Origin: a phage
Direction: 5' to 3' (one strand)
Sequence record: PZ721903.1
DNA: 49,628 bases
In this document: in pieces, positions 6,679-49,628 of the stretch
How the letters are laid out: each line of letters begins with the position of its first letter
Numbering within the stretch: the first letter of the stretch is position 1
The notes under the pieces: generated by a model
What the model was told of the DNA's origin: nothing
What the model saw: only the letters and a program-made list of their open reading frames with translations
The model's database searches: none
Position numbers and translations under genes: made by a program

Positions 6679-6698
6679 CATAAAAACACTTTGACGCT

Positions 6699-6715
6699 TT
6701 AACAAAAAGTGCTAT
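6699..6715. promoter_or_regulatory. palindromic box copy (late region)
   Basis: ttaacaaaaagtgctat; lies between a TTGACG hexamer and attatt, upstream of hairpin 6722. Confidence 0.6.
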
Positions 6716-10396: not shown

Positions 10397-10432
10397 AGGG
10401 GGCTTGCGCCCCCTTGTTCATTTCTGTAAAAT
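10397..10432 (+). terminator. hairpin (gggggc/gccccc) followed by TGTAAAAT -10-like box
   Basis: GC hairpin after the major tail gene, weak T-run, then ctgtaaaat; box copy 10461 and RBS follow. Confidence 0.45.
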
Positions 10433-10460
10433 CATCCTATCAACTTTATTCGATTAACTT

Positions 10461-10477
10461 TTAACAAAAAGTGCTAT
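10461..10477. promoter_or_regulatory. palindromic box copy directly upstream of the chaperone RBS
   Basis: ttaacaaaaagtgctat followed by caaCCAATCAGGAGaaacatcATG. Confidence 0.6.
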
Positions 10478-14416: not shown

Positions 14417-14452
14417 GCCCGCCTTGCGCGGGTTTTTTTGTAGCTGTAGAAT
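14417..14452 (+). terminator. terminator gcccgccttgcgcggg+T7 followed by TGTAGAAT box (copy 1 of duplicated module)
   Basis: Hairpin and T-run are identical to 16597-16619; followed by ctgtagaat. Confidence 0.65.
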
Positions 14453-14480
14453 GGTTGCAACTAAACAAGAGGAAAAGACA

Positions 14481-15263
14481 ATGAGCGAAAACAAAAAACT
14501 TTATGATGAAGAAAGCGGGAAGAGCCTGTTTCACAACTGCCTTCAATCACTATACCCTGGAGAGATAATCACTCTGATTGAAGTTGATGGCAGCAAGTTC
14601 GGCGCTCAGGTGTACCGTTTCCACGGGGAAAATATCCAGTACACTCCAGAAGAAATCATGCAGGCACAGCAAACCGGAACGCTACCGCCGAAAGAAATCA
14701 CCTTCCGTGGCGAGCAATACGGCGCGCGACCTTTCGGTATATCCGGGATCTCGTTCGACAGTTCCGGCAAGGCCACAAAGCCACAATTAACGGTGGCAAA
14801 CATCGATAGTCGCGTATCTGCGATGATTCGTGCATATAACGGACTAATGCAAGCTAAGGTGACTATCTGGATCACTCAAAAGGACTTAATTCAACATAAC
14901 GGCTCAATCGCTGACGGAGCTTACCGAAAACTGGTATACTATATCGAACGCCCGAGCTATGTCGATAAGAGTGTCGCCAGGTTCGATCTAACGTCTCCTT
15001 ATGATATGGATGGAATCATGATACCGTCACGACTAACTCAAAGCGTTTGCTATTGGGCGCAGAGGGGATGGTATAAAACCGGGAAGGGGTGCGGATACAA
15101 CGGGCAAAATGGTTACTTCGATAAAGACAATAATCCGGTAGACGATCCTTCGCTGGATTTTTGCCCGGGAACGGTAACGGCCTGCCGCCTGAGATTCGGC
15201 GCAAACAATGAATTGGATTTTGGCGGTTGCGCAGTCGCTTCACTACAGAGGAAAAATCAATGA
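14481..15263 (+). CDS. minor tail protein (lambda L-like) with C-terminal Cys cluster
   Basis: Start ATG 14481 (RBS aagagga); C-terminal cysteines (CYW...GCGYNG...FCPG...ACRL...GGCAV) as in the gpL Fe-S region. Confidence 0.7.
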   Translation: MSENKKLYDEESGKSLFHNCLQSLYPGEIITLIEVDGSKFGAQVYRFHGENIQYTPEEIMQAQQTGTLPPKEITFRGEQYGARPFGISGISFDSSGKATKPQLTVANIDSRVSAMIRAYNGLMQAKVTIWITQKDLIQHNGSIADGAYRKLVYYIERPSYVDKSVARFDLTSPYDMDGIMIPSRLTQSVCYWAQRGWYKTGKGCGYNGQNGYFDKDNNPVDDPSLDFCPGTVTACRLRFGANNELDFGGCAVASLQRKNQ

Positions 15264-16596: not shown

Positions 16597-16630
16597 CCCG
16601 CCTTGCGCGGGTTTTTTTTCGCCTGTATAA
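16597..16630 (+). terminator. terminator cccgccttgcgcggg+T8 followed by TGTATAAT box (copy 2)
   Basis: Same hairpin as 14417; followed by cctgtataat upstream of the J-like gene. Confidence 0.65.
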
Positions 16631-16667
16631 TGAGTCCACCGATAAATAGCACAAAAAGGTAAACATC

Positions 16668-19600
16668 ATGATTCAAAAAGTGATAAGTGGATCTAAAGGC
16701 GGCTCGCCTAAGCCTCATAATCCAGTTGAGATGGAAGACAATCTAATCTCAATCAACAAAATCAAGATCCTGTTAGCTGTATCTGATGGTGAAATTGACG
16801 AAACATTCAGCCTGAAGCAGTTGATGTTTAACTCAGTCCCGGTGCAAAACGAGGATGGATCGTTCAACTTCGAAGGGGTAAAGGCTGAGTTCAGGCCGGG
16901 AACTCAGACGCAGGAATACATCAAGGGCATGGAGGATAGTTCCAGCGAGGTAACTGTAAATCGTGAGGTTACTACCGATAACCCATACACGATCTCAGTG
17001 ACCAATAAAACACTATCGGCAATACGCATCAAAATGTTCATGCCTCGCGGCGTACGAATTGAAAGTAACGGTGATAAAAATGGCGTAAGAGTTGAGTATG
17101 AGGTGCAACAAGCTGTTGATGGCGGTTCGTTTGAGACTGTTCTTACTGACGTAATTGAAGGCAAAACAATGTCAGGTTACGACAGAAGTCGACGTGTAAA
17201 CCTGCCTAGCTTTAACAACCAGGTAATATTCAGAGTTGTTCGAAAGACTCCAGACTCTAACGACTCTAACGTTGTTGATGCGATCCAGGTAAAGAGCTAT
17301 GCCGAGGTGATTGATGCCAAATTCCGTTACCCTCTGACAGGTCTTCTTTTCGTCGAGTTCGACTCGAAGATGTTCCCAAACCAGTTACCTACGATCTCAA
17401 TTCGTAAGCGCTGGAAGATTGTAAGCGTTCCGTCGAACTACGACCCAGAATCGCGAACATACAACGGCAATTGGGATGGCACTTTCAAAAAAGCATGGAC
17501 GAACAATCCGGCGTGGGTTCTTTATGACCTGATGATTAATCAGCGTTACGGCTTGGATCAGAAAGAGCTTGGTATCGCTGTCGATAAATGGGCGCTCTAC
17601 GAGGCTGCGCAATATTGCGATCAGATGGTTCCTGATGGGAAGGGCGGGACGGAACCTCGATACCTTTGCGACGTGATAATCCAGTCTCAGACTGACGCTT
17701 ACAAGGTTATTCGAGATATTTGCTCAATCTTTCGAGGTATGAGCTTTTGGAATGGCGAAAGCATTTCGGTAATCATCGATAGGCCGCGTGAGCCTGCGTA
17801 CATCTTCACTAACGACAACGTGGTTAATGGTGACTTCTCCTACACGTTTGCAAGCGAAAAGAGCATGTACACGACGTGTAATGTGATGTTTGACGACGAG
17901 CAAAACATGTATCAGCAGGACGTTGAGCCAGTATTCGATCGTGAGGCTACTCTACGGTTCGGGAACAACGTAACGAGCATTACAGCGATCGGCTGCACAC
18001 GTCGAAGCGAGGCCAACCGACGCGGGAGATGGATTCTGAAAACTAACCTCCGCAGCACTACGGTAAACTTCGCTACCGGACTTGAGGGTATGATTCCGAC
18101 AATCGGAGATGTTGTGGCAATAGCTGATAACTTCTGGTCAAGTAACTTGACGATGAACCTATCAGGGCGCTTGCTCGAAGTATCCGGTAGTCAGATTTTC
18201 TTGCCGCTCCGGGTGGATGCACGCGCGGGTGACTTTATTATCGTAAATAAGCCAGATGGCAAGCCCGTGAAGCGCACAATATCAAGTGTTAGTGCGGATG
18301 GTAAGACTATAGAGGTTAACATTGGCTTTGGCTTTCCTGTGAAGCCTAACACGGTATTCGCTATCGACCGCACCGACATTGCGTTACAGCAGTACGTCGT
18401 GACAAAAATCGATAAGGGCGATGATGATGAGGAATTTACCTACAAAATAACGGCGGTGGAGTACGATCCTAACAAGTACGATGAGATTGATTACGGAGTT
18501 AATATCGACGACCGACCGACGAGCATCGTTGAACCAGATCAGATCCCTAGACCGGAAAACGTGCAAGTGTCCTCAGAGTCACGAATCGTCCAGGGGATGA
18601 GCGTAGAAACGATGATTGTTAGCTGGGATAAAGTGCCGTACGCAGTTTTCTATGACGTCCAGTGGCGAAAGGATAACGGCAACTGGCAAAATGTACCGCA
18701 GACAGCAAACAAAGAGGTATACGTTGAAGGTATTTACGCTGGCAACTATCAGGTTCGCGTTCGCTCCGTAGCTGGTTCCGGTACGACTTCAGGATGGTCA
18801 AATGTCGTAGCTGCGACGCTGACGGGCAAACAAGGTGAGCCGGGTGGACCGATTAACCTTACAGCTACGGATGATGTTGTTTTTGGTATCCGTACAAAAT
18901 GGGGGTTCTCTGATGGTTCTGGAGATACGGCCTATACAGAGTTGCAACAGTCACCAGATGGAACAGTGGATAACGCAAGTTTGCTTTCTTTGATTCCGTA
19001 CCCGCAGCATGAGTATTATCACTCACCGATGCCTGGAGGGAATATTGTTTGGTATCGTGTAAGGACGGTTGATAGGATCGGTAACGTGTCTCAGTGGACT
19101 GATTTTGTCAGAGGTATGGCATCAACAAACGTTGACGATATCATTGGGGAGATTTCTGTCGATATCGAAAACTCGCCGGGTTACGAGTGGCTTGTTGATA
19201 ACGCAACCGACAACGCGGCGCAGAACGCAGCTAACGCAGAGGCAGCAATAGAAAACGCGCTCGCCAATGACAAAGACGCGATCTACATGAAGAAGGAGAA
19301 CGGAAAACGAAAAGCTGAGTACACGAAATCACTGAAACTTATTGCTGATGAGACGCAGGCGCGAGTGACGGCGATCGAGCAATTGAAGGCAAGTTTTGGC
19401 GATCAGATTAGCGCTAGCAACAGCGAATTGCGTGAAGTTATCGCAACTGAGACTGGAGCGCTATCGCGTGAAATTGACCAACTCAGGGCAGAGATTGGTG
19501 ATGATATCCAGGCAAGTTTGACCGATATCAGAGAGGCTATAGCAAACGAGACTGAGGCGAGAACGCAAGCTGACTTGTCGTTAAGCGCGAGGCTTGGGAA

Positions 19601-20438: not shown

Positions 20439-21127
20439 TGTCATACGGTGCTTTTATAGATGTAAACGGAAACCCATTCATAACCCCGTTATCCACGCCA
20501 TTCGCCTTATATGAGAGAGGGGAAATTCAATCAGTAAATGTTAGTGGTTCACAGGTTGCGGAGAGATATGTTCGGATACCTACAGGTGTTCCGGTTATAG
20601 CTTTTTGCAAAACAACAAACACGCAGCAGGGGACCGCGCTTTCAGCCTTTACTTTCAGAAGCGGACCCAATGTTGGAACTGTTTATATAAGGGGGACAAA
20701 TCCAGCAAACCAATCATACACGCTAACATACTACATATTTGCCATATTTGAGCAGTCACTACCGAGCTGGGGTATGGCAATATGGGATTCGTCAGGAAAG
20801 CTAGTGCTGACAAATGAGACAAAAGTCCTTAGTGATTTGGTTACAATCGGCACTCCTGGATACGCTGGAGGTGGATTAAACATAGACACAACACTCAGCG
20901 GAAGCTACGCAGTTGTTCCAACTATACTTGGCAACTATCAAATTGTTATTGGCAGGCTGCCAACTGGGCAACCCATAATAGGAAACTCAACAGCAGGCAG
21001 CTCATGCAGATACAACGGGAGCACAACGAGAATAAATGCAGCAGCAACCACTGCGGCAGGTCGGATATTGAACACCACGAATAATGGAAATATTATAACA
21101 GCAATAAAAACGGCAGCATACGACTAA
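20438..21127 (+). CDS. hypothetical tail-associated protein (possible receptor-recognition accessory)
   Basis: 229 aa; ATGA overlap with the upstream gene; ATA/AGA-rich codon usage unlike the core genome; last gene before the late terminator. Confidence 0.45.
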   Translation: MSYGAFIDVNGNPFITPLSTPFALYERGEIQSVNVSGSQVAERYVRIPTGVPVIAFCKTTNTQQGTALSAFTFRSGPNVGTVYIRGTNPANQSYTLTYYIFAIFEQSLPSWGMAIWDSSGKLVLTNETKVLSDLVTIGTPGYAGGGLNIDTTLSGSYAVVPTILGNYQIVIGRLPTGQPIIGNSTAGSSCRYNGSTTRINAAATTAAGRILNTTNNGNIITAIKTAAYD

Positions 21128-21904: not shown

Positions 21905-22969
21905 ATGTTCCAGGTGTTCACATCAAGTCAGCTTTCTAATGACGAGTATCATAGCAACGAAGGTTGGGCGGCAGAGTATGTAAGCGGTTCTAGCCTTGCA
22001 GAAATTTATCAGACTTGCCCGGCTAACTGGAGATTCAAGAAGAATGAGACAACGAAGGCGCTGGAGTTTGGTACTCAGTCGCATACCAACTTTGAGAGCC
22101 GAGATCTGTTTACTGCAACGTATGCACGTTGTCCGGCTCCGTCAGAGTTCAAGGATCTGATTACGTCACAAGCCGCACTGGCTGCAAAATTAAAATCTTT
22201 CGGCCTGAAAGGTACATCCGGTAAGCAGTACCCGGACCTCATCAAGATGATGGTTGATTGCGGTGAAGAGCTAAACGTCCAATATCTGATCGAGTTGATT
22301 GCGGAAGCAGAGGCGCGCTCTGAAGGAAAGAAATTGGTTGACGCTGACAAATACGACGCTTGCATGAAGATGAGAGCAATCCTTGAACAAAATCCTGATC
22401 ACGAAGCGTGCATCAACAGTGAAACGGCGCAGCGTGAGATTTCAATCTTCGGTGAGATATCCGGCGTCAAGGTTAAGGTTCGACTTGACCATCTGGACTA
22501 CAAAGAGAATGTTCCAGGTCGTGTCCTGACTGGTTATGATGAGAATGGAGATCCGGTATTCGAAGATGTTATTTTCCCTGAAGCACTGATTATCACTGAC
22601 TTCAAAACAACAATGAGCGCCAACCCGTTAGAGTTCCCGAGACTGGCATACAATCACGGGTATTATCTGAAAATGGCCTTGCAGCATGATCTGCTACGAC
22701 GCGCAATCCAGGCTGGCGCTTTTGAAGGCAACTTCCCGGAAGATATCCCGATCGTAGTTCGATTGCTGGCTCAGGAGAAAAAAGAGCCTTACATCGCACT
22801 TGCTTACCGTATGACTATGGAGCAAATCAGGATCGGTCGTAGCCAGTATGTTAGCGTAGTCCACACTTACAAGGCTTGCTCTGAAATGGATGTTTGGCCT
22901 GGGTACGCTGGCGACGCAAGCGAGATTGAACTTGAAACGCCATCATGGGTGCGTTACCAAAATAAGTAA
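21905..22969 (+). CDS. PD-(D/E)xK family recombination exonuclease (putative)
   Basis: 354 aa; IITDFKTT-type D...E.K nuclease motif; located upstream of Erf and SSB. Confidence 0.5.
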   Translation: MFQVFTSSQLSNDEYHSNEGWAAEYVSGSSLAEIYQTCPANWRFKKNETTKALEFGTQSHTNFESRDLFTATYARCPAPSEFKDLITSQAALAAKLKSFGLKGTSGKQYPDLIKMMVDCGEELNVQYLIELIAEAEARSEGKKLVDADKYDACMKMRAILEQNPDHEACINSETAQREISIFGEISGVKVKVRLDHLDYKENVPGRVLTGYDENGDPVFEDVIFPEALIITDFKTTMSANPLEFPRLAYNHGYYLKMALQHDLLRRAIQAGAFEGNFPEDIPIVVRLLAQEKKEPYIALAYRMTMEQIRIGRSQYVSVVHTYKACSEMDVWPGYAGDASEIELETPSWVRYQNK

Positions 22970-23043
22970 ACGGCACAAATAGCTAAACAAATAATTAATG
23001 AGGTGTTATAATGCACCTCATACACCAATCAGGAGAAGTTAAG

Positions 23044-23691
23044 ATGCAATTATCACCAGAAACAAACGAAATTCTTCCCGCACTGTTCAATGCTCGCAAC
23101 AAATTTGCTAAAGCAAAGAAGGACGCAAAAAACAATCACCTGAAAAATTCATACGCAACCCTTGATGCAATGATGGCGGCCGTTAGCCCGGCGCTCACCG
23201 ATAACGATATTATGATCCTGCAATCAATGCTGGACACCAGCACGGAAACAACCTTCCATCTTGAAACGATGCTGATTCACAAATCCGGGCAATGGGCCAA
23301 GTTCTTCATGATGATGCCTATTGCAAAGCGCGATCCTCAAGGTGTAGGCTCAGCGATGACGTATGCGCGGCGTTACTCATTAGCCGCAGCGCTGGGGATT
23401 AGCCAGAGTGATGACGATGCTCAGCTTGCAGTGAAATCTGTCAAGGACTGGAAAAAAGAACTTGATGCGTGTGAAGATATCGAATCACTGAAAGAGGTAT
23501 GGGCTAACGCTTACCGCCAGACGGACACGGCAAGCAAGTCAATCATTCAGGATCACTACAACGCACTTAAGGCTAAGTTTGAGATCGGTAAAGCTCGTGG
23601 TATTCGCCCGGCGCAACCGGAGCAGAAAAAACAGGTTGAAGCAACGAGCGCGAAGCCTGTACAATCTCAATCAATCACCAACTTCGAATAA
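23044..23691 (+). CDS. erf: Erf-family single-strand annealing protein
   Basis: KNSYATLDAMMAAV...MTYARRYSLAAALG resembles the ERF family core; start ATG 23044 behind RBS aggag. Confidence 0.7.
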   Translation: MQLSPETNEILPALFNARNKFAKAKKDAKNNHLKNSYATLDAMMAAVSPALTDNDIMILQSMLDTSTETTFHLETMLIHKSGQWAKFFMMMPIAKRDPQGVGSAMTYARRYSLAAALGISQSDDDAQLAVKSVKDWKKELDACEDIESLKEVWANAYRQTDTASKSIIQDHYNALKAKFEIGKARGIRPAQPEQKKQVEATSAKPVQSQSITNFE

Positions 23692-23737
23692 TCATCAGGA
23701 CGGCTTCGGTCGCCCATAAATTTTAGGAGAGAAAATC

Positions 23738-24151
23738 ATGCATATTATCACTGGAGAGATCCGAAAAGAACCTAAGATTCTTGAACGTAACGGCGGGAAT
23801 ACTTATATAATCGAACTGGCAGAGAGCTACAAGCCTCGAGATGGAGATCGAGAATACACCAACTACACATTCTTTTTTAGCGACGGTGGAAAGCCTGGCC
23901 TTGCTGACTGGTATCGTGAAGCATTCCAGGTTGGTCGCGTCGTATCAGTATCATGCGAGACGTTGAAGATCTCATCCCGTGAACACAATGGAACGGTTTA
24001 CAATTCATTGCAGGCCGCTGACTTCCCGAAGTTGGTATTTAGTCAACGAGGACAAAGCAATCAACAACGAGCACCGCAGCAACAACAGCGAACGCAATCA
24101 CAGCCACAGCCAAATCCTCAATCAACTTTCGATGATGATATCCCGTTCTAA
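23738..24151 (+). CDS. ssb: single-stranded DNA-binding protein
   Basis: 137 aa OB-fold-sized protein with Gln/Pro-rich tail ending in the acidic SSB signature DDDIPF. Confidence 0.85.
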   Translation: MHIITGEIRKEPKILERNGGNTYIIELAESYKPRDGDREYTNYTFFFSDGGKPGLADWYREAFQVGRVVSVSCETLKISSREHNGTVYNSLQAADFPKLVFSQRGQSNQQRAPQQQQRTQSQPQPNPQSTFDDDIPF

Positions 24152-24152
24152 C

Positions 24153-24180
24153 AAAAATCCCCGCAATGCGGGGATTTTAT
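24153..24180. terminator. bidirectional terminator between ssb (+) and tail fibre (-)
   Basis: aaaaatccccgcaatgcggggatttt: stem flanked by an A-run and a T-run. Confidence 0.65.
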
Positions 24181-25685
24181 CATTTGGACTTCAACATTTT
24201 TATCTCTTCTTGTAACTCTTCAACTTTCTTTATTGTATCCTGTAAAGCTCTCATAGTGTCAAGCAATAAAGGAGTTGTATCAAGCTCAAGCCTTTCAACT
24301 TTTGGCCCGTTTAGCTCGTGGCTCTCATACACCCTTCTCTTAACATATAGATTGTCGATCTCTTCTATCTCCTGAGCTATAACACCTCTCCTTACCCTTT
24401 CTTGCTCATCATCGTTAAATATAAAGTTCCTAAATCTCATTGATTTTATGTTGTTGTATGCAATGCTTGATTCATCATCCTTTATGCCGTGCTTTATATT
24501 TCTGTCAGATGCCGGAACCTGTTGGAAACTTCCAGCCCCTTGCGGTCCAGCGTAAGATATTTGCCCTGAAGCCATAAACCTGAAATGCATTTGCAGACCA
24601 ATATTGCCTGCTCCATCCCTATCTTGAGTGCCTACTGATATTTGTGCCCTGGGCCATTCAGGATTACCCGTAGTCATCATGCCAAATGCTACGCCGCCAA
24701 CGTATCCCTGACCTCTGGTGTCACACGATCCAGCAATAAGTGATTGATAGTTTTCAGCACCACTATCAGCGGTGTAAGCATTACCCTGGAAGCATGAAGC
24801 AGACCACATCTGGTTGTAACCCATAGATGTTTTCTGGCATAAAAACTGATTAGCTCTGAATCTATTGTTAGTCTCGAAGTAGTTTGCCCCCTCATAAAAT
24901 AATAAAGCCCCAGCATAACCATTATCGCTACGTTCTTTTCTGACGTAAATACCTGGCGTAGATATTCCATCAGGTGACATAATCATCAATGATGACAATA
25001 TGGACTGACTACCCCAGCTAGAACCGTCCCATGAATTCCTTCCTGCACCTATAGCGCCAGTGGTGTTAATAGCAAGAAAGTTAACAGCATCATTTTCACC
25101 TAACCCAATATTTTTTCTTGACTCTTTTTTATCCTCAAGACCAGCTAAATTGCCATCCTTAGTTAAAAGATTTTCAGCATTGATGCTGTTAGCTGCGTCT
25201 TTTGCTTCTTGAGCACTTACCGCAGCCGCATCTTTTGAGCTTACCGCATCGTCACGCGCTAATTCAGCCTGATTTTGCGCAGCTTGAGAATCAGATTTCG
25301 CCTGATTCACATCAGCAACTATTTGCTCAAGTTTATTCATATCAAGCTGATTTATCAGGTCTATAGCTGCCGCAATCTCAGTCTCTTTGCTTTGATAGTA
25401 TCGAAGAGTCTCGGCGACGTTTTGAGCTAATCCGTTAACGGTTAGAGAGTCATTAAGTAGGATCACATACTTACCGTCATCGGCAGTCTGACCATCAGTA
25501 GAGATAGCCTTTAATTCTGTATCACTAACGATATCGCTAATCACAGCTAGCTTAATTGGTTGCTCAAGGAACACGATAGTTGCACCTACGCGAATAAGAG
25601 CAAGCTGGTCTTTCCATTTTGTATCGGTTCCGTGAACCGTTCCGTCTGCATCCATTGATGCAGTACCGCGTCGATATAAAGCCAT
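24180..25685 (-). CDS. tail fibre with C-terminal intramolecular chaperone (peptidase S74-like)
   Basis: 501 aa; C-terminal region with SDRNIKHGIKD...RFRNFIF...coiled-coil tail typical of self-cleaving tail-fibre chaperone domains; RBS aaggag. Confidence 0.7.
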   Translation of the reverse strand: MALYRRGTASMDADGTVHGTDTKWKDQLALIRVGATIVFLEQPIKLAVISDIVSDTELKAISTDGQTADDGKYVILLNDSLTVNGLAQNVAETLRYYQSKETEIAAAIDLINQLDMNKLEQIVADVNQAKSDSQAAQNQAELARDDAVSSKDAAAVSAQEAKDAANSINAENLLTKDGNLAGLEDKKESRKNIGLGENDAVNFLAINTTGAIGAGRNSWDGSSWGSQSILSSLMIMSPDGISTPGIYVRKERSDNGYAGALLFYEGANYFETNNRFRANQFLCQKTSMGYNQMWSASCFQGNAYTADSGAENYQSLIAGSCDTRGQGYVGGVAFGMMTTGNPEWPRAQISVGTQDRDGAGNIGLQMHFRFMASGQISYAGPQGAGSFQQVPASDRNIKHGIKDDESSIAYNNIKSMRFRNFIFNDDEQERVRRGVIAQEIEEIDNLYVKRRVYESHELNGPKVERLELDTTPLLLDTMRALQDTIKKVEELQEEIKMLKSK

Positions 25686-25704
25686 AATATAAACTCCTTA
25701 AGTA

Positions 25705-25723
25705 AATAGCACGAATTGCTAAA
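25705..25723. promoter_or_regulatory. palindromic box copy in the tail-fibre 5' UTR / start-site region
   Basis: atagcacgaattgctaaac between the -10 (25728-25733) and RBS of the - strand tail-fibre gene. Confidence 0.6.
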
Positions 25724-25727
25724 CACA

Positions 25728-25756
25728 GATTTTATCATCGCGCCACGAGTCTTGCA
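25728..25756 (-). promoter_or_regulatory. sigma70-like promoter (TTGCAA-17-TAAAAT) for the tail-fibre gene
   Basis: On the - strand: -35 at 25751-25756, -10 at 25728-25733; a palindromic box copy (25705-25723) lies over the predicted start site and 5' UTR. Confidence 0.5.
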
Positions 25757-25761
25757 ACGGG

Positions 25762-25785
25762 CAATAAAAAACCGCCCGAAGGCGG
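25762..25785 (-). terminator. terminator after the primase gene (- strand)
   Basis: ccgcccgaaggcgg hairpin followed on the - strand by a T-run (aataaaaaa on +). Confidence 0.6.
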
Positions 25786-26721
25786 TTATAGTAGATCACT
25801 TGCTGAGAATAACTTAGCTTGCATTCCTGAGCGGTATCCTCCCTGATTCGGGATGATTATTTTTAATTGTCTGTCGTCTGCCATGTATAAAGTTTCTTTA
25901 TCAGATGGTTCGCACGCCACCCTTACCTCCCGATCTCCCTTGTATCTGTACGCAACCATTTCTATATTTTCAGGAGTGAAGCAGGCCCATACCTCTTGCT
26001 TTGTGTGAAATGCAATATGCTGAGCATCAATCCAATTAAGGCATAAGTAGATCGCTTTTTCAGTTTTACCAGTCACGGCAACCGAGCAACTTGTGTATTT
26101 CTTTGCATAAAATGACTCCCTACCCTCCTCATCAATAATCAAAATATTGCAAAACTCTTCATCAAGACCGTCCTCGTGTACAAGTTGACATGGTATGGTG
26201 TGAAATACACTCTCGCCGCCATCCTCTCGACGTTTTACGCCAACGTCGAATGATTCAGTAGGTAGCGACTCAAACATGCTTAGAGGTGTGTTTATGCGCT
26301 TCTCTGTGCGCTCCATAACTTTCATCACTGCCTCGTGTTCTGCCATCATAACATTGACGCCAGCTACCGGAGTTCTTCGCGCTTTTTTGTTGGCCTTGAC
26401 AATGTATTCCTGCGGAACCTTGCCGAGAAATCTTCCCAGGATATTTATACATTCGCTGTACGGCATACCAGTTAATTTCATCAACCAACCGACTCCAGAG
26501 TCGTTACCGCATGAGTTGCAGATCGCACCGCCGTCGCCCGGAGTGTTAAGGTTATCAGTCCAGCGAAAGCGGTCCTTACCCCCGCAGTTAGGGCAAGGTT
26601 GGTGTTTCTTATTAAAAACATCATTCGGCAATCCGCAGATTGATTGGAAAGCCTCGCGCCATAACCCCTTCATGTACGGCAAAACGTCCTCTTTCTGAAA
26701 CATCATAAATTCTTCGTTCAC
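25786..26721 (-). CDS. DNA primase (zinc-binding, putative)
   Basis: N-terminal CPNCGGKDRFRW...CNSCGN zinc-finger motif typical of phage/plasmid primases; 311 aa. Confidence 0.65.
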   Translation of the reverse strand: MNEEFMMFQKEDVLPYMKGLWREAFQSICGLPNDVFNKKHQPCPNCGGKDRFRWTDNLNTPGDGGAICNSCGNDSGVGWLMKLTGMPYSECINILGRFLGKVPQEYIVKANKKARRTPVAGVNVMMAEHEAVMKVMERTEKRINTPLSMFESLPTESFDVGVKRREDGGESVFHTIPCQLVHEDGLDEEFCNILIIDEEGRESFYAKKYTSCSVAVTGKTEKAIYLCLNWIDAQHIAFHTKQEVWACFTPENIEMVAYRYKGDREVRVACEPSDKETLYMADDRQLKIIIPNQGGYRSGMQAKLFSASDLL

Positions 26722-26731
26722 TTCCAGATCT

Positions 26732-26774
26732 CCAAAATAAAAAACGCGTAGAAGGATGTTAACCCGCTACGCGT
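26732..26774 (-). terminator. possible terminator/attenuator between the HTH gene and primase (- strand)
   Basis: acgcgtag...ctacgcgt 8-bp stem with long loop, T-run on the - strand. Confidence 0.4.
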
Positions 26775-26778
26775 CGTT

Positions 26779-26797
26779 TGTTTTAACTAAAAATGCT
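26779..26797. promoter_or_regulatory. palindromic box copy (variant)
   Basis: ttttaactaaaaatgctat overlapping the 3' end of the HTH gene (- strand). Confidence 0.5.
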
Positions 26798-27235
26798 ATT
26801 GGTCGTCCCGATATCTTCCTTCTTCACGACGCGCATAAATTTCTTGTTCTTGCATCGCTTCTCAAGGCACTTGCCGTTACCGTCAAACTTCAGGTCGAAT
26901 CGCAACCATGCGGCACGAAATCCTTTACACCCCTGTCGTCGGTAAGCACGATGCGCAGCTTCAGCACCTTGCCACGAAATCATGTTGCGTTCTTTCCAGC
27001 CTTGCACCGTCTGATTGCTAACCTTTAGAGCTTTTGCGCAGGCCGCAGGGCCACCATAATATTCGATAAGCGCATCAAGTCGCGCTCGCAATCCGGCGCG
27101 TGTTTCTTCTTTATGAATATAGAAGCCGCAGCGCTGTCGAGGCTTTTTATCTTTACCGCGTCGTGTTCCGTTGTTACCATTGATGTGACGTTTATCGATT
27201 TCACCAGTTGACTCTGCGATACGTTGAATACTCAT
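26783..27235 (-). CDS. HTH DNA-binding protein (Cro/YdaS-like, putative regulator)
   Basis: Helix-turn-helix-like segment GGPAACAKALKVSNQTVQGWKER and basic N-terminus; divergent from the helicase gene; stop codon lies inside a palindromic box copy. Confidence 0.45.
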   Translation of the reverse strand: MSIQRIAESTGEIDKRHINGNNGTRRGKDKKPRQRCGFYIHKEETRAGLRARLDALIEYYGGPAACAKALKVSNQTVQGWKERNMISWQGAEAAHRAYRRQGCKGFRAAWLRFDLKFDGNGKCLEKRCKNKKFMRVVKKEDIGTTNSIFS

Positions 27236-27247
27236 CTTAATTCTCCT

Positions 27248-27267
27248 ATAGCACTTTTTGCTAAAAA
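27248..27267 (+). promoter_or_regulatory. palindromic box + -10 (tattat) upstream of the helicase gene
   Basis: atagcactttttgctaaaaa, 22-nt spacer with inverted repeat aacgtttac/gtaaacgtt flanking tattat. Confidence 0.6.
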
Positions 27268-27328
27268 CGTTTACTGTATGCCGTGTATTATAGCGTAAAC
27301 GTTACAACGATTCAAAGGATTAATAGAC

Positions 27329-29347
27329 GTGACAATGAACATTAAAAAGCAGATTGCATTACTTGGCGAGGACTATATAAAGCGAACTCAGGAGCGATTC
27401 ACTGTCGGTGAGGTTGTTCCTTATCCGTACCAGGTTGTTGCTTATGCTGAGATCGCGAAACGCCTATCAAATTACGAGCATCCATTCTTTGTTAAAGCGT
27501 CAGTATCTGCTGGTAAGACCATCATTTTTGCTATGGTTGCAAAGCAGTGTCAGAAAATGGGCTTAAAAATGCTCGTTCTGGCTCGCCAGGGTGAGATTGT
27601 CGATCAGGATAGCGAGGAGATTGACAACTTTGGGGTAACTAACTCCATATTCTCAGCCTCATTAGGTATTAAGTCCTGCTATTTTCCTATCGTGGTAGGC
27701 TCAGAGGGTACTGTTGCAAATGGCCTCGACAATGAGCTTGCTGATTTCGTCCCGCATGTAATTGGGATCGACGAATGTCACCAGGTGGATTGGGAAGACC
27801 TTGCGCAAGCCATTGAGGGCAAGGAAACAATGGAACAAATGAGGGGCGAGAAGGGAAAAATCATCATGGATGGAGATATTCCCCTGATTGGTAATGATGG
27901 AAAACCTTTGCTTGGGACTAAGCGCAGTCAGTACACAATCGTAATCATGGAAATGATGCGGCGCTGTAAAAAGGTTCACGGTCACGATCTCAGAATATTT
28001 GGTATGACTGGATCTGAATTTCGTGGCGTAGTTCCTATTCTGGTAGAGAATCCGAAAGCATTGGGATTCTGGCGTGAGCGAGTAACTGATATCGACACAA
28101 ACTATCTGATTGAGTTCGGTTCTGTTGTGCCGACAATATTCGGTTCAACAGACGGAGTTCATTACGATCTGGATAAGTTCAAGGCGTCGAGCGAGGACGG
28201 AGTGCAGGACTTTACAGAGAAAGACATGAAGGCTATGGAAGATGAGATCCTTCATGATAAATCTCTTACTCAGCGAATCATGCAAATGGTTGCCAAAAAG
28301 GCTGAAGAGCGTAACGCGGTACTGATTACATGTGCTGGTGTGCGCCACTGCAAAGAGGCAGCGGCAGCACTTCCTCCGGGAAGCACCTATGCAATTATTA
28401 CTGGCGACACAGACAACAAAACGCGCAAGAAGATTCTGGACGATGTAAGGGCCGGAAAAATTAAATACACCTTTCAGGTAATGGCGCTCACTACTGGTGT
28501 TAACGTTCCAAATTGGGATTTCAGTGTCATACTCCGCAAAATAGGGTCGCTCACACTGTTGATTCAACTTTTGGGTAGGGGTATGCGTCTGCTTAAATCC
28601 TGGCAGGTTGCTGAGGGAATGGTTAAGCAGGACCATCTGGTATGGGATTTCGCAGGTACGATGGATGAGTTGGGCCAGCTTTATTTCGATCCGATACTTG
28701 AGCAGGCGCAATTCCAAAAGCGTTTTGAAAACGGCAAAGATCCGAAAACATGTCCGAAATGCGGTTGCGTAAATAGCTTCTATGCTCGACGATGCGTTAA
28801 TGTCATTGATGGTGAACGTTGTGATCATTTCTGGACTTCTCAGGTTTGTGAGGACCAGGTTGACGAGCGCACCGGAAAAATCCTTGTTAAAGGATGCGGC
28901 GCAGAGAATGACGTTGTGGCCAGAGTCTGTCGTTGCTGTGATGTTTCGCTTGTCGATCCTAACCTGAAGTTATCCGGTAAGGCGTACACTAAGAATGACT
29001 GGTATGAAGTAAAGAATTTTGAGGTTACGCTAACCAAAAACCAGAAAGGCATAATATACAAATACACTCTTATTAACGATGATGGTGATGAGTTCAAGGC
29101 GTATGAAAAATTCTTCCCCGAGTCTGACTCTAAGATTTGCGGTACGCTATGGAAAACTAAAGGTGTATTGCCACACGTATCGGATCCTAAAATGCGCCGA
29201 TACTTTATCGGAATGAAGAACGCCATCAAGATTTTGCAATACTCACATCATATTGCTCACCCGGTGCGCGTAACTCATCGTCGCAACCAGAAGAAAGAAG
29301 ATATTATCTCACGAAAAGACTTTGGTATGGAGGATATCCCGGAATGA
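27329..29347 (+). CDS. SF2 DNA helicase with C-terminal zinc-finger region
   Basis: Walker A SAGKT, DEAH-like IDECH box, Cys clusters CPKCGC...C..C near the C-terminus; GTG start 27329 (RBS aagga). Confidence 0.75.
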   Translation: MTMNIKKQIALLGEDYIKRTQERFTVGEVVPYPYQVVAYAEIAKRLSNYEHPFFVKASVSAGKTIIFAMVAKQCQKMGLKMLVLARQGEIVDQDSEEIDNFGVTNSIFSASLGIKSCYFPIVVGSEGTVANGLDNELADFVPHVIGIDECHQVDWEDLAQAIEGKETMEQMRGEKGKIIMDGDIPLIGNDGKPLLGTKRSQYTIVIMEMMRRCKKVHGHDLRIFGMTGSEFRGVVPILVENPKALGFWRERVTDIDTNYLIEFGSVVPTIFGSTDGVHYDLDKFKASSEDGVQDFTEKDMKAMEDEILHDKSLTQRIMQMVAKKAEERNAVLITCAGVRHCKEAAAALPPGSTYAIITGDTDNKTRKKILDDVRAGKIKYTFQVMALTTGVNVPNWDFSVILRKIGSLTLLIQLLGRGMRLLKSWQVAEGMVKQDHLVWDFAGTMDELGQLYFDPILEQAQFQKRFENGKDPKTCPKCGCVNSFYARRCVNVIDGERCDHFWTSQVCEDQVDERTGKILVKGCGAENDVVARVCRCCDVSLVDPNLKLSGKAYTKNDWYEVKNFEVTLTKNQKGIIYKYTLINDDGDEFKAYEKFFPESDSKICGTLWKTKGVLPHVSDPKMRRYFIGMKNAIKILQYSHHIAHPVRVTHRRNQKKEDIISRKDFGMEDIPE

Positions 29348-34658: not shown

Positions 34659-35066
34659 TCAAATTCTTCTTTCGTAAGCTGGAGCCTTGCGCACAATTCG
34701 ACGTTCCGATCTATCAATGTTTCTACGTTCGCCAAACAAATCTTCATCACTCATCTCTCCAATGTGCATCATTTCCCACGTATACCGATTGTTGTAGCCA
34801 TCAATACACATCAGCTTCATCATTACCGGGCGCTTAATCTTTCCCTTGCACCAGTAAACTCCATCCTTGCGATCTAAGTAACCCTCAGTCACGCAACGAG
34901 CGCAAAACTCCTTAGATAGCGCGCTTGTAAATTCACGGCGAGTCATTCCAGCAGCCTTAGCAAATCGCTCACTTTCCTTGTGGGCGTATATAAATTTCGC
35001 TATGTGCTGTCGAGTGTATTTGTCGTAACCTTCGCAGAATATGAACAGATCTAGAAGAAGCAGCAT
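34659..35066 (-). CDS. hypothetical protein
   Basis: 135 aa ORF in the leftward early operon. Confidence 0.5.
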   Translation of the reverse strand: MLLLLDLFIFCEGYDKYTRQHIAKFIYAHKESERFAKAAGMTRREFTSALSKEFCARCVTEGYLDRKDGVYWCKGKIKRPVMMKLMCIDGYNNRYTWEMMHIGEMSDEDLFGERRNIDRSERRIVRKAPAYERRI

Positions 35067-41699: not shown

Positions 41700-42170
41700 A
41701 TGGCGACAATTACCGTATTTCTTGCTAAAGATGAGCTTGATGGCGAAATGTCATTCTTCGCGTTTGAGCATAAAACCGGCTCGCACTGGCACACTTACAG
41801 CCATTACACGGTTATCTCAATCGAAGCGTACGACGGCGAACTGCTCACTGATAAACTGAGTAATTTCATTGAAGCCGTTAAAGCTAGCGGCGGCTGCGAG
41901 TGGAAGGAAGATCACGAAGTTATGCGAATGTTTGAGATGGTCAATCCGGTTCGCCTTGAGTCGTTCGAGCTTGATGCTAATGTGACTATCAAGGTGAGAA
42001 AGTCGGGTGAGTTATTGCCAGGGATGCGTGTACTGACTGGTTACTCTGGCCGTAAGGTGTGGCGCACTGTATCCAAGATTCGCCAGCGCTCGGCAACATG
42101 CTATAGCGTATTCTTTGATGATGGTTGGAATATGATGTCCGGTAGTGAGGTAAAGTATCTCACCAAATAG
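41700..42170 (+). CDS. hypothetical protein
   Basis: 156 aa; stop TAG lies in box copy 42167. Confidence 0.5.
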   Translation: MATITVFLAKDELDGEMSFFAFEHKTGSHWHTYSHYTVISIEAYDGELLTDKLSNFIEAVKASGGCEWKEDHEVMRMFEMVNPVRLESFELDANVTIKVRKSGELLPGMRVLTGYSGRKVWRTVSKIRQRSATCYSVFFDDGWNMMSGSEVKYLTK

Positions 42171-42186
42171 CACGAATTGTTAAAAC
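42167..42186 (+). promoter_or_regulatory. palindromic box + hairpin-embedded TATAGT
   Basis: atagcacgaattgttaaaac; 22 nt; TGcTATAGT inside ggggta...tacccc; CATCGAAACGA; CCAATCAGAGGAAT. Confidence 0.65.
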
Positions 42187-42248
42187 CTGATCGGGGTATC
42201 TTGCTATAGTTACCCCATCGAAACGAGATACCAATCAGAGGAATAACC

Positions 42249-44328: not shown

Positions 44329-44477
44329 TGGCTGCGTGGGTCTTGATTATCTTGATGAGTACCGGTCCGGATCACGTATACATGGAAAGTCAGCAATCAT
44401 GCAACAAGGCTCGGGAGGTGATTTCAGAGAACAAGCCGTTCGGATACGAAGTAAAAACGATGTGCGTTAAACGATAG
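44328..44477 (+). CDS. small hypothetical protein (49 aa)
   Basis: Below track cutoff; TAATG overlap, RBS gaggtga; stop TAG in box copy 44474. Confidence 0.35.
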   Translation: MAAWVLIILMSTGPDHVYMESQQSCNKAREVISENKPFGYEVKTMCVKR

Positions 44478-44493
44478 CACGAATTGCTAAACC
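44474..44493 (+). promoter_or_regulatory. palindromic box + hairpin-embedded TATAGT
   Basis: atagcacgaattgctaaacc; TGaTATAGT within aaggcca...tggcctt; CCAATCAGAGGAAT. Confidence 0.65.
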
Positions 44494-44557
44494 TTCCGCA
44501 AGGCCATTTGATATAGTGGCCTTATTGAAGCAGAGCGACCAATCAGAGGAATCGGCT

Positions 44558-46205: not shown

Positions 46206-46736
46206 ATGGATAAAATTACCATTTGGGGCCAGACTGTCAACCTGTTTCTCGGCACGCGCCGAGTGGCAATCTTTGACTTTGACGGGACACTTAGCGATGG
46301 ATCTGGTCGACTTCACCTGCTGCCAACAAAGGATTTGCACTTGACTGAAAGCTGGTCTGAGTTTAACCGAGCGGCAATATTTGATAACCCAATCCAGAGC
46401 ACGATCGATGTGATGAACTCTATTTTTGCCGCTGGGTATCATGTGATCATTTTAACCGGGCGAAGTGATGAGGTGCGTTACGCATCTGAGTTATGGCTTA
46501 AGCATCACGGCGCTCGATATGATTACTTAGTCATGCGACCGCATACCGACAACCGCAAAGACACGGTAATGAAAGAAGAGGCAGTGCGCGCTATCGGCAT
46601 TGATAACATTCTTGCGGCTTGGGATGACTCAGTGAATATAATAAAAAAATTCAGAGATCTAGGGATAACCACATATCAGGTTTGTGAATATGCCTGTGAT
46701 AGTCGAGAGGATTTAAATAGTCATGGTGTCGATTGA
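46206..46736 (+). CDS. HAD-superfamily phosphatase
   Basis: Motif I AIFDFDGTL and ILTGR motif; 176 aa. Confidence 0.6.
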   Translation: MDKITIWGQTVNLFLGTRRVAIFDFDGTLSDGSGRLHLLPTKDLHLTESWSEFNRAAIFDNPIQSTIDVMNSIFAAGYHVIILTGRSDEVRYASELWLKHHGARYDYLVMRPHTDNRKDTVMKEEAVRAIGIDNILAAWDDSVNIIKKFRDLGITTYQVCEYACDSREDLNSHGVD

Positions 46737-47217
46737 TAACAAATCAATGGTAAGAGAGTTATTTACTTATTCTGACGGCGTTCTGTATTGGAAGGCCAAA
46801 TCATCTAAATACAGTAGAGCTAAAATAGGAGGCGCGGCAGGAAGCAAGGATAAAGACGGATACATAATAATCAGAGTAAGAAACGAAACTAGAGGCGCTC
46901 ACAGGCTTGTATGGATATACCATAATGGCAAGATACCTGATGGAATGGAGGTAGACCATATGGATGGAGACATAACAAACAATAGAATAGAAAACCTAAG
47001 ATTGGTAACGAGAACCATAAATAACAGGAATCAAAAAAAGAGATCTGATAACACAACCGGAGTATCCGGTGTAACTTTCATGAAAGATAGAGGAAAGTAT
47101 AGGGCGCAAGTTAGAAACAAGAGACTCGGGCAGTTCGACACAATAGAAGAGGCCGCCAAAGCAGTAAAGGATGAGCGGGATAGATTAGGTTTATTCACAA
47201 AAAGACACGGGGTGTAA
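46723..47217 (+). CDS. HNH homing endonuclease with AP2 DNA-binding domain
   Basis: HRLVWIYHNGKIP...DHMDGDITNNRIENLRLVTRTINNRN (HNH) followed by SGVSGVTFMKDRGKYRAQVRNKRLGQFDTIEEAAKA (AP2-like); AGA/AGG/ATA-rich codon usage unlike neighbours. Confidence 0.75.
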   Translation: MVSIDNKSMVRELFTYSDGVLYWKAKSSKYSRAKIGGAAGSKDKDGYIIIRVRNETRGAHRLVWIYHNGKIPDGMEVDHMDGDITNNRIENLRLVTRTINNRNQKKRSDNTTGVSGVTFMKDRGKYRAQVRNKRLGQFDTIEEAAKAVKDERDRLGLFTKRHGV

Positions 47218-47219
47218 AC

Positions 47220-47792
47220 ATGAAAACAGCTATCATTTTAAACGGCGCACCTGGTGCGGGAAAGGACACTATCGGATGCATCCTTGCTGACACTTACGAT
47301 CACGTAGCCTTGCGCAGCTTCAAAGCGCCAATGTTTGAGATTGCCAGGGCAATCCTGGGTGAAGCTAACTACGAGTATTTCATGTTCTTGTATGAGGACC
47401 GTCGATATAAAGAAGAGCCAGCATCAATCCTGAACGGTAAAAGCCCGCGCCAGTTTATGATCTGGATTAGCGAGGAAGTCATCAAGCCGCAGTTCGGAAA
47501 TCGCTTCTTCGGTATGCGAGCGGAAAGCAAGGTGAAAGAGTCGCACTCCCTTTCGGTATTTACTGATGGTGGATTCAAAGACGAAATCTTGCAGATGATT
47601 GAAGGTGATATCCAGGTCAAGCTATGTCGAATACATCGCAACGGTTGCAGCTTTGATAACGACAGCCGCGACTATATCTATCTTGACGACATGATCGGGG
47701 TTAACGGTTATCAGGAATGTGACTTCTTTTCTGTCGAAGGTCATCCAGAAATTACCGCTCAGCACATAGCCGCCACGTTCATCAATAAATAG
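47220..47792 (+). CDS. P-loop kinase, dNMP-kinase-like
   Basis: Walker A GAPGAGKDT and LNGKSP segment resembling T4 gp1-type deoxynucleotide monophosphate kinases. Confidence 0.55.
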   Translation: MKTAIILNGAPGAGKDTIGCILADTYDHVALRSFKAPMFEIARAILGEANYEYFMFLYEDRRYKEEPASILNGKSPRQFMIWISEEVIKPQFGNRFFGMRAESKVKESHSLSVFTDGGFKDEILQMIEGDIQVKLCRIHRNGCSFDNDSRDYIYLDDMIGVNGYQECDFFSVEGHPEITAQHIAATFINK

Positions 47793-47808
47793 CACGAATT
47801 GCTAAAAC
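47789..47808 (+). promoter_or_regulatory. palindromic box + TGaTATAGT
   Basis: atagcacgaattgctaaaac; -10 at 47827-47832 puts the palindrome centre (47797) near -42; CATCGACAACGA at the predicted transcript start. Confidence 0.65.
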
Positions 47809-47864
47809 GTCGATGGGGTGATTTGATATAGTTACCTCATCGACAACGAAGAGAGAAAATCTAA

Positions 47865-49577: not shown

Positions 49578-49620
49578 ACCCGCTTCGGCGGGTTTTTTTA
49601 TGCCTGCAATATGGTAAAAT
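49578..49620 (+). terminator. terminator followed by TGgTAAAAT extended -10-like box upstream of terminase
   Basis: acccgcttcggcgggt + T7, then atggtaaaat (49611-49620); junction box copy and terS RBS follow across the window end. Confidence 0.65.
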
Positions 49621-49628
49621 AGCACTAA
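49619..49628. promoter_or_regulatory. palindromic box copy spanning the window junction (continues at 1..10)
   Basis: atagcactaa at 49619-49628 joins atgttaaaca at 1-10 to give atagcactaaatgttaaaca, matching atagcacgaattgttaaaac. Confidence 0.6.

Follow-up and report, generated by a model that had tools for sequence, protein, structure and literature searches.

The window, that is, the whole stretch of 49,628 nucleotides analysed here, is a complete, circularly permuted genome of a T1-like phage (Tunavirus, Drexlerviridae), as judged from the annotation of Escherichia phage phiD2-2 mapped onto it (Table 1). Over the 3.1 kb surrounding the gene of interest (23700-26800), it shows 99.9% identity with phiD2-2 and 92-97% identity with many Escherichia and Shigella Tunavirus phages. 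The gene, which encodes a tail fibre, lies on the minus strand between the Erf and OB-fold genes on the plus strand and the primase gene on the minus strand; it shares its strand with the primase and regulator genes, at a distance of roughly 3 kb from the tail operon. The initial annotation had placed it inside the replication module, on the opposite strand and isolated from the tail operon, and this description is borne out. The plus-strand structural block stops near 21127, with the fibre gene beyond it, and "replication module" is the correct context because the flanking genes are identified in the Pfam comparison as ERF-family, OB-fold-type, zinc-ribbon primase, weakly Cro-like HTH and helicase genes, the OB-fold-type (SSB-like) neighbour being without a Pfam match of its own. 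Two small-gene arrays are also present in the mapped annotation of this genome.

The opposite-strand position is not unusual, as it is syntenic across the Drexlerviridae. T1, JMPW1, IME347 and Sazh show the same order as here (Erf - SSB-like > < fibre < primase < regulator > helicase), and so does phiD2-2, where the fibre locus also lies between the recombination genes and the primase gene and runs against the structural genes. In the BASEL study, the recombination and primase/helicase genes on either side of the lateral fibre locus were reported to be fully syntenic in 13 Drexlerviridae, and only the 5' end of the lateral fibre gene was common among the 13 (PMC8594841).

Table 1. Features of the fibre locus and related elements in the window (positions in window coordinates).
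Feature	Position	Strand	Details
Structural genes	1-21127	+	Mapped phiD2-2 annotation
Reversed box upstream of major capsid gene	6697-6715		Overlaps TTGACG-16-TATTAT promoter (spacer and -10)
Reversed box of tail-assembly-chaperone gene	10459-10477		21 nt before ATG; after terminator and TAAAAT -10
Recombination genes	21905-24151	+	Mapped phiD2-2 annotation
Bidirectional intrinsic terminator	24154..24178	both	Common to SSB-like gene (+) and fibre gene (-)
Three-gene block including fibre gene	24180-27235	-	Mapped phiD2-2 annotation
Lateral tail fibre gene	24180..25685	-	ORF; 501 aa plus stop codon; 54.8-kDa precursor
Peptidase_S74 intramolecular chaperone	24183..24509	-	aa 393-501; 13.0 kDa
Lys398 codon	24492-24494	-	
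Ser393 codon	24507-24509	-	
Beta-rich distal tip	24510..25169	-	aa about 173-392; presumed receptor-binding domain
Alpha-helical (coiled-coil) shaft	25170..25370	-	aa about 106-172; model helices 80-166, low confidence
N-terminal anchor domain	25371..25685	-	aa 1 to about 105; conserved among Drexlerviridae fibres and spikes
Ribosome-binding site (RBS) AAGGAG	25694..25699	-	8 nt 5' of ATG; read directly in the sequence
Copy of T1-family repeat ATAGCACnnnTTGnTAAAA	25706..25724	+	14/15 matches; reversed relative to fibre gene
Sigma-70-like promoter of fibre gene	25729..25757	-	TTGCAA - 17 nt - TAAAAT, TG extended -10
Primase terminator, hairpin and T-run	25762..25787	-	Directly upstream of fibre promoter; pattern scan
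Forward-box promoter of primase gene	26781-26799		Early/middle type
Cro-like HTH regulator gene	26783-27235		Two genes upstream of fibre gene; 150 aa
Reversed box in Cro-like regulator leader	27248-27266		
Sigma-70 promoter of regulator gene	27315..27287		10/12; promoter scan
Helicase, methylase and lysis genes		+	Mapped phiD2-2 annotation

The ORF of the fibre gene has the 501 codons that had been claimed for it. The homolog in phiD2-2 is annotated with a start that gives 491 aa; however, the position of the RBS favours the 501-aa start, and the first 10 residues align with the Klebsiella phage depolymerase 7VYV from its residue 1, as expected for the longer protein. Correcting the start codon from the 491-aa annotation in phiD2-2 to 501 aa is therefore of practical value. 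An identical 501-aa protein is on record in phage FCWL1, and identical or near-identical proteins occur in FCWL1, phiD2-2 and Eco_BIFF. The protein matches 14 tail-fibre families in PHROGs, the best being phrog_1980 ("tail fiber protein", E=1.5e-97, aa 14-501). Among 621 fibre homologs, PF13884 (Peptidase_S74) is found in nearly all of the matches listed, and in certain alleles of the locus it is replaced by PF12708 or PF25670.

An S74-like chaperone had been proposed at the C-terminus, to be checked by a search for the Peptidase_S74 domain. The search detected PF13884 at aa 393-443 (E=3.3e-8, 34.1 bits against a cut-off of 22) as the sole Pfam domain of the protein, and the Ser-Lys motif S393-D-R-N-I-K398 is present at the start of the chaperone. 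Among 32 aligned fibre alleles, diverse in sequence (38-96% identical to the query), neither Ser393 nor Lys398 varies, and Asp394 is nearly invariant. The AlphaFold2 monomer model, built from a 32-sequence alignment, reaches a pLDDT of 70-87 across most of aa 400-500, with a helix at 470-500. When this chaperone model was used as a Foldseek query, the best match was 7DC3 (MyRF ICA; E=2.8e-5, target TM 0.60-0.64), followed by 3GW6 (endosialidase chaperone); these two S74-type chaperones are the only significant matches, and those beyond the first nine are noise. Outside the chaperone the model is poor (mean pLDDT 51.9 for the whole protein), which is to be expected of a monomer model if the fibre is an intertwined trimer. 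The fold of the tip is unusable, and we set the whole-protein model aside for everything except the chaperone. In T5 pb1, the Thr1263-Ser1264 bond is cleaved with Lys1269 activating, and cleavage unmasks receptor binding (PMC4690869). The Ser/+5 Lys geometry is the same here; cleavage is therefore predicted at Ala392-Ser393, and by this analogy it would yield a 41.9-kDa fibre and a 13.0-kDa chaperone. The identity of the gene product as a tail fibre with a chaperone of the self-cleaving S74 type thus agrees with both PHROG 1980 and PF13884 above its cut-off, with the cleavage itself predicted from T5 pb1.

The remainder of the protein can be divided into an anchor, a shaft and a tip. The anchor of ~105 aa aligns over its full length to the N-terminus of the Klebsiella phage depolymerases 7VYV and 7LZJ (E=1e-43 for the whole hit), and it contains the majority of the invariant columns in the 32-allele alignment. 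Relative to the 594-aa alleles of Shigella phages, ~93 aa of the shaft are absent, and comparison with Sfin-3 puts the gap between aa 142 and 143. The present allele is a variant of the Shigella-phage fibre with a short shaft, a feature that may bear on host-range engineering. Thirty Tunavirus records from E. coli and Shigella contain the tip at an identity of at least 80%, which reaches 89% or more in 29 of the records, and the tip is 48-57% identical to the fibres of ~44-kb coliphages (e.g., Gluttony, jat and Bas83-85). The last 130 residues of the fibre align with the C-terminus of the L-shaped tail fibre protein of DT57C (8HQZ_d). With the 32-allele profile as a query, the match to this protein, DT57C LtfA, extends to the C-terminal 250 aa (E=3e-29), and the MyRF ICA domain, the S16 long tail fibre tip and the phi29 appendage chaperone are matched as well. 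One could argue from the N-terminal domain in common with the solved depolymerases, and from the alleles of this locus in which PF12708 or PF25670 takes the place of PF13884, that the protein is an enzymatic tailspike (depolymerase) instead of a binding fibre. However, the Pfam search of the fibre gave no enzyme domain, the similarity to 7VYV and 7LZJ ends by about aa 219, and the distal region is only ~220 aa long and homologous to the DT57C LtfA fibre tip. We consider a depolymerase extremely unlikely.

The gene is bracketed by terminators, as the initial annotation had it, with hairpins in the places it had given (Table 1). The downstream hairpin has an 11-bp stem, a 3-nt loop and T-runs on both strands, and it takes up the 28 nt that separate the SSB-like gene from the convergent fibre gene. 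Folded in a 51-nt context, it gives -21.9 kcal/mol on the minus strand (z -4.75) and -18.9 kcal/mol on the plus strand (z -4.35). The pattern scan for terminators missed this hairpin, probably because the T-run is consumed by A-T pairing in the extended stem. The upstream hairpin, AACCGCCTTCGGGCGGTT followed by TTTTATTG at 25787-25762 on the minus strand, overlaps the stop codon of the primase gene; its 7 pairs (G-C in 5/7) enclose a TTCG loop, the tail is TTTTATTG, and it is kept in 11/11 aligned relatives.

The fibre promoter was found in the promoter scan as a match at 9/12 hexamer positions plus the TG of an extended -10, and transcription is predicted to start near 25722. The scan of the region found 14 such sites against 15.8 expected in shuffled sequence. 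The match is not above chance when taken alone, and what supports the promoter is its conservation among relatives. In 7 Tunavirinae, the -35 TTGC, TGATAAAATC and the box downstream are conserved, whereas variation is found in most of the 17-nt spacer and in the 7 nt that follow the -10. Three Tlsvirus phages and IsaakIselin have promoter-like elements of their own in the equivalent place, directly after the primase terminator. Of the near-consensus promoter that had been claimed for the gene, the promoter-like element is thus in place and conserved, although "near-consensus" overstates a 9/12 match with TG. The predicted promoter could also be modulated, or not be the one used, given the box that lies over the predicted start.

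This box had been noted as a palindrome over the start site, and it is indeed located there. The palindrome TAGCACGAATTGCTA at 25707-25721 has a perfect core; the box follows the -10 at a distance of 7 nt, extends over the predicted +1 to about +15 and is separated from the ATG by 20 nt. Among the aligned relatives, 7 Tunavirinae and IsaakIselin, a member of a different subfamily, retain the reversed box in the fibre leader, whereas the 3 Tlsvirus phages lack it. The window contains 21 matches to the palindrome pattern TAGCAnnnnnTGCTA, a 15-fold enrichment over the 1.43 expected, and 26 box copies at a threshold of at least 12/15 matches; one further copy, in forward orientation, spans the window junction in the terS leader. 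Nineteen copies are forward, in the same direction as the downstream gene, and form a module consisting of the box, 19 nt, a TATAGT-like -10, a conserved CATCGAnAACGA and then the RBS and ATG. Such modules precede the primase, helicase and methylase genes and the small-gene arrays. Reversed copies are found in the leaders of the fibre, tail-chaperone and regulator genes and upstream of the capsid gene, and T1 carries the equivalent three in its fibre, capsid and tail-chaperone units.

The box corresponds to the 21-nt repeat aaATAGCACnnnTTGnTAAAA of TLS, T1, Rtp and Rogue1, whose function is listed as an open question, with stoperator, enhancer and UP-element readings offered by the TLS authors (PMC11447400). 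The repeats were described as having the orientation of the transcript, ~76 nt ahead of start codons (PMC11447400). The fibre copy departs from this orientation, as it is reversed relative to both the fibre and the primase genes, and when read in reverse it matches the repeat at 9/15 positions only (hand count). Several other roles for the copy were considered and rejected. As an antisense promoter towards the primase gene it would lack a -10, the sequence 19 nt after the box being CACGAG here and TACCTG in T1. If its end, GTGCTAT, served as the extended -10 of the fibre gene, the start would land within the Shine-Dalgarno sequence. As a sigma-54 promoter (GGCAC-N5-TTGC), its spacing is 2 nt short and GG is AG. 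As an RNA hairpin, the leader box gives -5.9 kcal/mol (z -0.67), which is indistinguishable from shuffles.

Domain content, catalytic residues, synteny and the conservation of regulatory elements, all observed here, point to a lateral (side) tail fibre of a T1-like siphovirus, with an S74 chaperone and encoded by a self-contained minus-strand unit, and we regard this conclusion as very likely. For trimerisation, cleavage, receptor class, promoter use and timing, we infer the following scheme by analogy with T5 pb1, K1F, DT57C and SH6. Three fibre chains would assemble into a homotrimer, as in the solved relatives, with the C-terminal 109-aa S74 chaperone nucleating trimer folding of the beta-rich tip. 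The chaperone would then remove itself by cutting the Ala392-Ser393 bond, with Lys398 activating Ser393, to leave a mature fibre of ~41.9 kDa with an exposed receptor-binding tip. The conserved N-terminal ~105 aa would dock the fibre on the tail, and the tip would probably bind first, and reversibly, to a surface glycan (O-antigen or LPS core). According to the BASEL (PMC8594841) and KanT1 papers, direct proof of what the lateral fibres of Drexlerviridae do has never been obtained. In terms of expression, the unit would consist, in order, of the primase terminator, the extended -10 promoter, the leader with the reversed box, the RBS, the gene and the bidirectional terminator, and the gene would be transcribed as a late unit from its own host-type promoter. 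This arrangement matches the terminator-promoter-gene-terminator layout, or "transcripton", described for the late region of T1 (PMC11447400).

The initial annotation had taken the palindromic box as a sign of temporal control separate from the other late genes. This is unsupported, as a reversed box also occurs upstream of the capsid and tail-chaperone genes; its presence upstream of these two other late units therefore links the fibre gene to them. The gene might still be timed separately, e.g., early with the flanking replication genes. Its strand is that of the primase and regulator genes, some 3 kb separate it from the tail operon, and its own promoter has a -35, TTGCAA, that is better than those of the late promoters of CCCGCCTTGCGCGGG-type modules (family D9). 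Nevertheless, a strong terminator separates the primase gene from the fibre gene, and the primase gene has a forward-box promoter of the early/middle type, whereas the fibre gene has none. Moreover, the reversed leader box is common to two other late units, the terminator-plus-promoter junction is the general layout of the T1 late region, and early production of a structural protein has no obvious rationale. Separate timing appears very unlikely to us, and transcription as a late unit is the preferred reading. A literature search for transcriptome or timing data on T1-like phages (Drexlerviridae) found none; one candidate paper concerned a T5-like phage.

That the box is reversed upstream of three late units may hint at the function of this 21-nt repeat. 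It could be an operator, at which a box-binding protein, with the Cro-like HTH protein as a candidate, would block the fibre promoter over +1 to +15. The same protein would act positively at the many early/middle promoters that have a box at about -50 to -32, and the fibre and other late units would turn on once it was titrated or lost. The core is a perfect palindrome, as for the site of a dimeric HTH protein, and is 15-fold enriched; the 19 forward copies sit 19 nt upstream of a TATAGT-like -10; reversed copies are upstream of three late units in the window and T1 alike; one reversed box is in the regulator's own leader, as in an autoregulated gene; and the regulator weakly matches P22_Cro-like proteins (E=4.4e-5, below the Pfam cut-off). 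On the other hand, the TLS authors list the function of the repeat as open, with several readings (PMC11447400), and the position of the box varies, from +1 in the fibre unit to about +19 in the tail-chaperone unit and the spacer and -10 of the capsid gene. In addition, the fibre leaders of Tlsvirus are without the box, and the terS leader has a forward copy. An operator at the fibre promoter is thus unlikely. A more general proposal, which we rate as quite unlikely, is that the reversed boxes in the fibre, tail-chaperone and regulator leaders and in the capsid spacer/-10 are candidate operator sites for one protein, perhaps the Cro-like one. This protein would hold the late units off and support ~19 early/middle promoters, and genome replication would titrate it and thereby release the late units. 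If true, this would give a function to a repeat for which it is listed as an open question in the T1/TLS literature, and would explain the early-to-late switch in a phage family that is not known to have its own sigma factor or RNA polymerase.

The fibre gene, its S74 domain, its locus position and its leader repeat are already known in T1-like phages. The SH6 paper of 2017 reported a "second tail fiber" with a Peptidase_S74 domain, and the homolog in this Tunavirus phage was found in virions by LC-MS/MS (17 peptides, 42% coverage; PMC5238451). The Sazh record notes a "C-terminal chaperone domain" on the fibre, and the UniRef name of the ADB-2 homolog is "Peptidase S74 domain-containing protein". 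Because the gene, the chaperone domain, the odd-looking position and the leader repeat have all been described for T1-like phages, the discovery value of the locus is small.

The closest known systems are T1 fibB (T1p25-26), SH6 ORF54 and the BASEL "lateral tail fiber protein", which are like the fibre here in locus, strand, N-terminal domain and S74. The T1 isolate examined has two ORFs, whereas the fibre here is a single polypeptide, and the Shigella-phage alleles of 594 aa contain ~93 aa of shaft that the 501-aa fibre does not. T5 pb1 and DT57C LtfA (4UW8, 8HQZ) come from a different phage family, are 1076-1396 aa long and have another N-terminal attachment; the DT57C LtfA tip and S74 chaperone are nevertheless homologous (E=3e-29 by profile), the catalytic Ser of pb1 has a Lys at +5 as here, and reversible glycan binding may be presumed for the present fibre as for these two. 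The K1F endosialidase chaperone (3GW6) and MyRF ICA (7DC3) are alike in the fold of the last ~110 aa and in the Ser-Lys autoprocessing motif, but are attached to a sialidase beta-helix and a eukaryotic transcription factor, respectively, so that only the chaperone module is in common. Depolymerases of the Depo32 type (7VYV, 7VZ3 and 7LZJ) share the ~105-aa anchor, which aligns fully and is followed by a helical neck as here; however, they continue into an enzymatic body of ~700 aa with no S74 match in the search, in contrast to the short tip and chaperone of this fibre. As for the leader, the fibre copy matches the T1/TLS repeat aaATAGCACnnnTTGnTAAAA of the Kropinski group (PMC11447400) at 14/15 positions, and the repeats are intergenic and present in many copies per genome in both cases. 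The published repeats run along transcription ~76 nt upstream of the start, whereas the copy in the fibre leader has the opposite orientation and precedes the ATG by 20 nt.

Among the intergenic copies of the 21-nt repeat shared with T1 and TLS-family phages (the box), only three are reversed with respect to the flanking genes, and each of them lies upstream of a late structural unit. T1 carries the same three reversed boxes (L013, a T1 stretch used for comparison, 15068-15086, 18832-18850 and 34888-34906), and two of the three stop 20-21 nt short of the ATG.

Forward boxes, which point in the same direction as the gene downstream, number 19 and span window 26781-47807. Each forward box is part of a module of ~62 nt, in which the box is followed by 19 nt, a TATAGT-like -10 and then CATCGAnAACGA. 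When the 42 nt 3' of the box were folded, 14 of the 19 modules gave a hairpin with z < -2, the mean z being -3.4. Stems differ in sequence from copy to copy and often bracket the -10; the hairpin looks like a conserved structure kept by compensating changes. One forward box, that of the helicase gene (27248-27266), falls within the leader of the weakly Cro-like regulator gene, 12 nt from the regulator ATG, in the divergent control region between the regulator gene (-) and the helicase gene (27236-27334). Such an arrangement would be consistent with an autoregulated gene whose control is coupled to activation of the helicase. Another copy is split across the window ends: positions 49612-49628 and 1-9 together make one box, with ATAGCACTAA at the end and ATGTTAAAC at the start joining into a forward box 16 nt 5' of the terS ATG (position 26). 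It follows that the window is circularly permuted, with the cut inside the terS leader.

The late region has compact terminator-promoter junctions. In these, the hairpin loop TTGCGC lies exactly 17 nt 5' of a TAGAAT, TATAAT or TAAAAT hexamer, and thus the terminator loop may also serve as a -35.

Positions of boxes, modules and promoter elements in the window
Feature	Position	Detail
Reversed box, major capsid gene	6697-6715	
Reversed box, tail assembly chaperone gene	10459-10477	
Reversed box, lateral fibre gene	25706-25724	
Forward box modules (examples)	47789-47850, 42167-42226, 44474-44530	
Terminator-promoter junctions, late region	14418-14453, 16597-16632, 49578-49613, 10399-10433	
Sigma-70 match, Cro-like regulator gene	27315..27287	TTGAAT-17-TATAAT; best in area

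The lateral fibre gene starts at Met11 in the record of the closely related Escherichia phage phiD2-2, giving 491 aa (window 25656-25685). The 501-aa start is favoured both by the ribosome-binding site and by residues 1-10, which align with residue 1 of the solved Klebsiella phage depolymerase 7VYV. The annotation of the T1 isolate MN153797.1 splits the fibre locus into two ORFs of 151 aa and 538 aa, separated by a 99-nt gap (L003 635-2806 = MN153797.1 32696-34867), whereas the window has a single ORF. The split in T1 could mean that the fibre really consists of two proteins, or it could be a frameshift or an artefact of sequencing.

The phiD2-2 genome is 291 bp shorter than the window. The polynucleotide kinase/phosphatase gene region has 906 nt in the window (46206-47111) but 612 nt in phiD2-2, a difference in length that suggests an insertion there relative to phiD2-2. 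In T1, a homing endonuclease adjoins the polynucleotide kinase/phosphatase gene.
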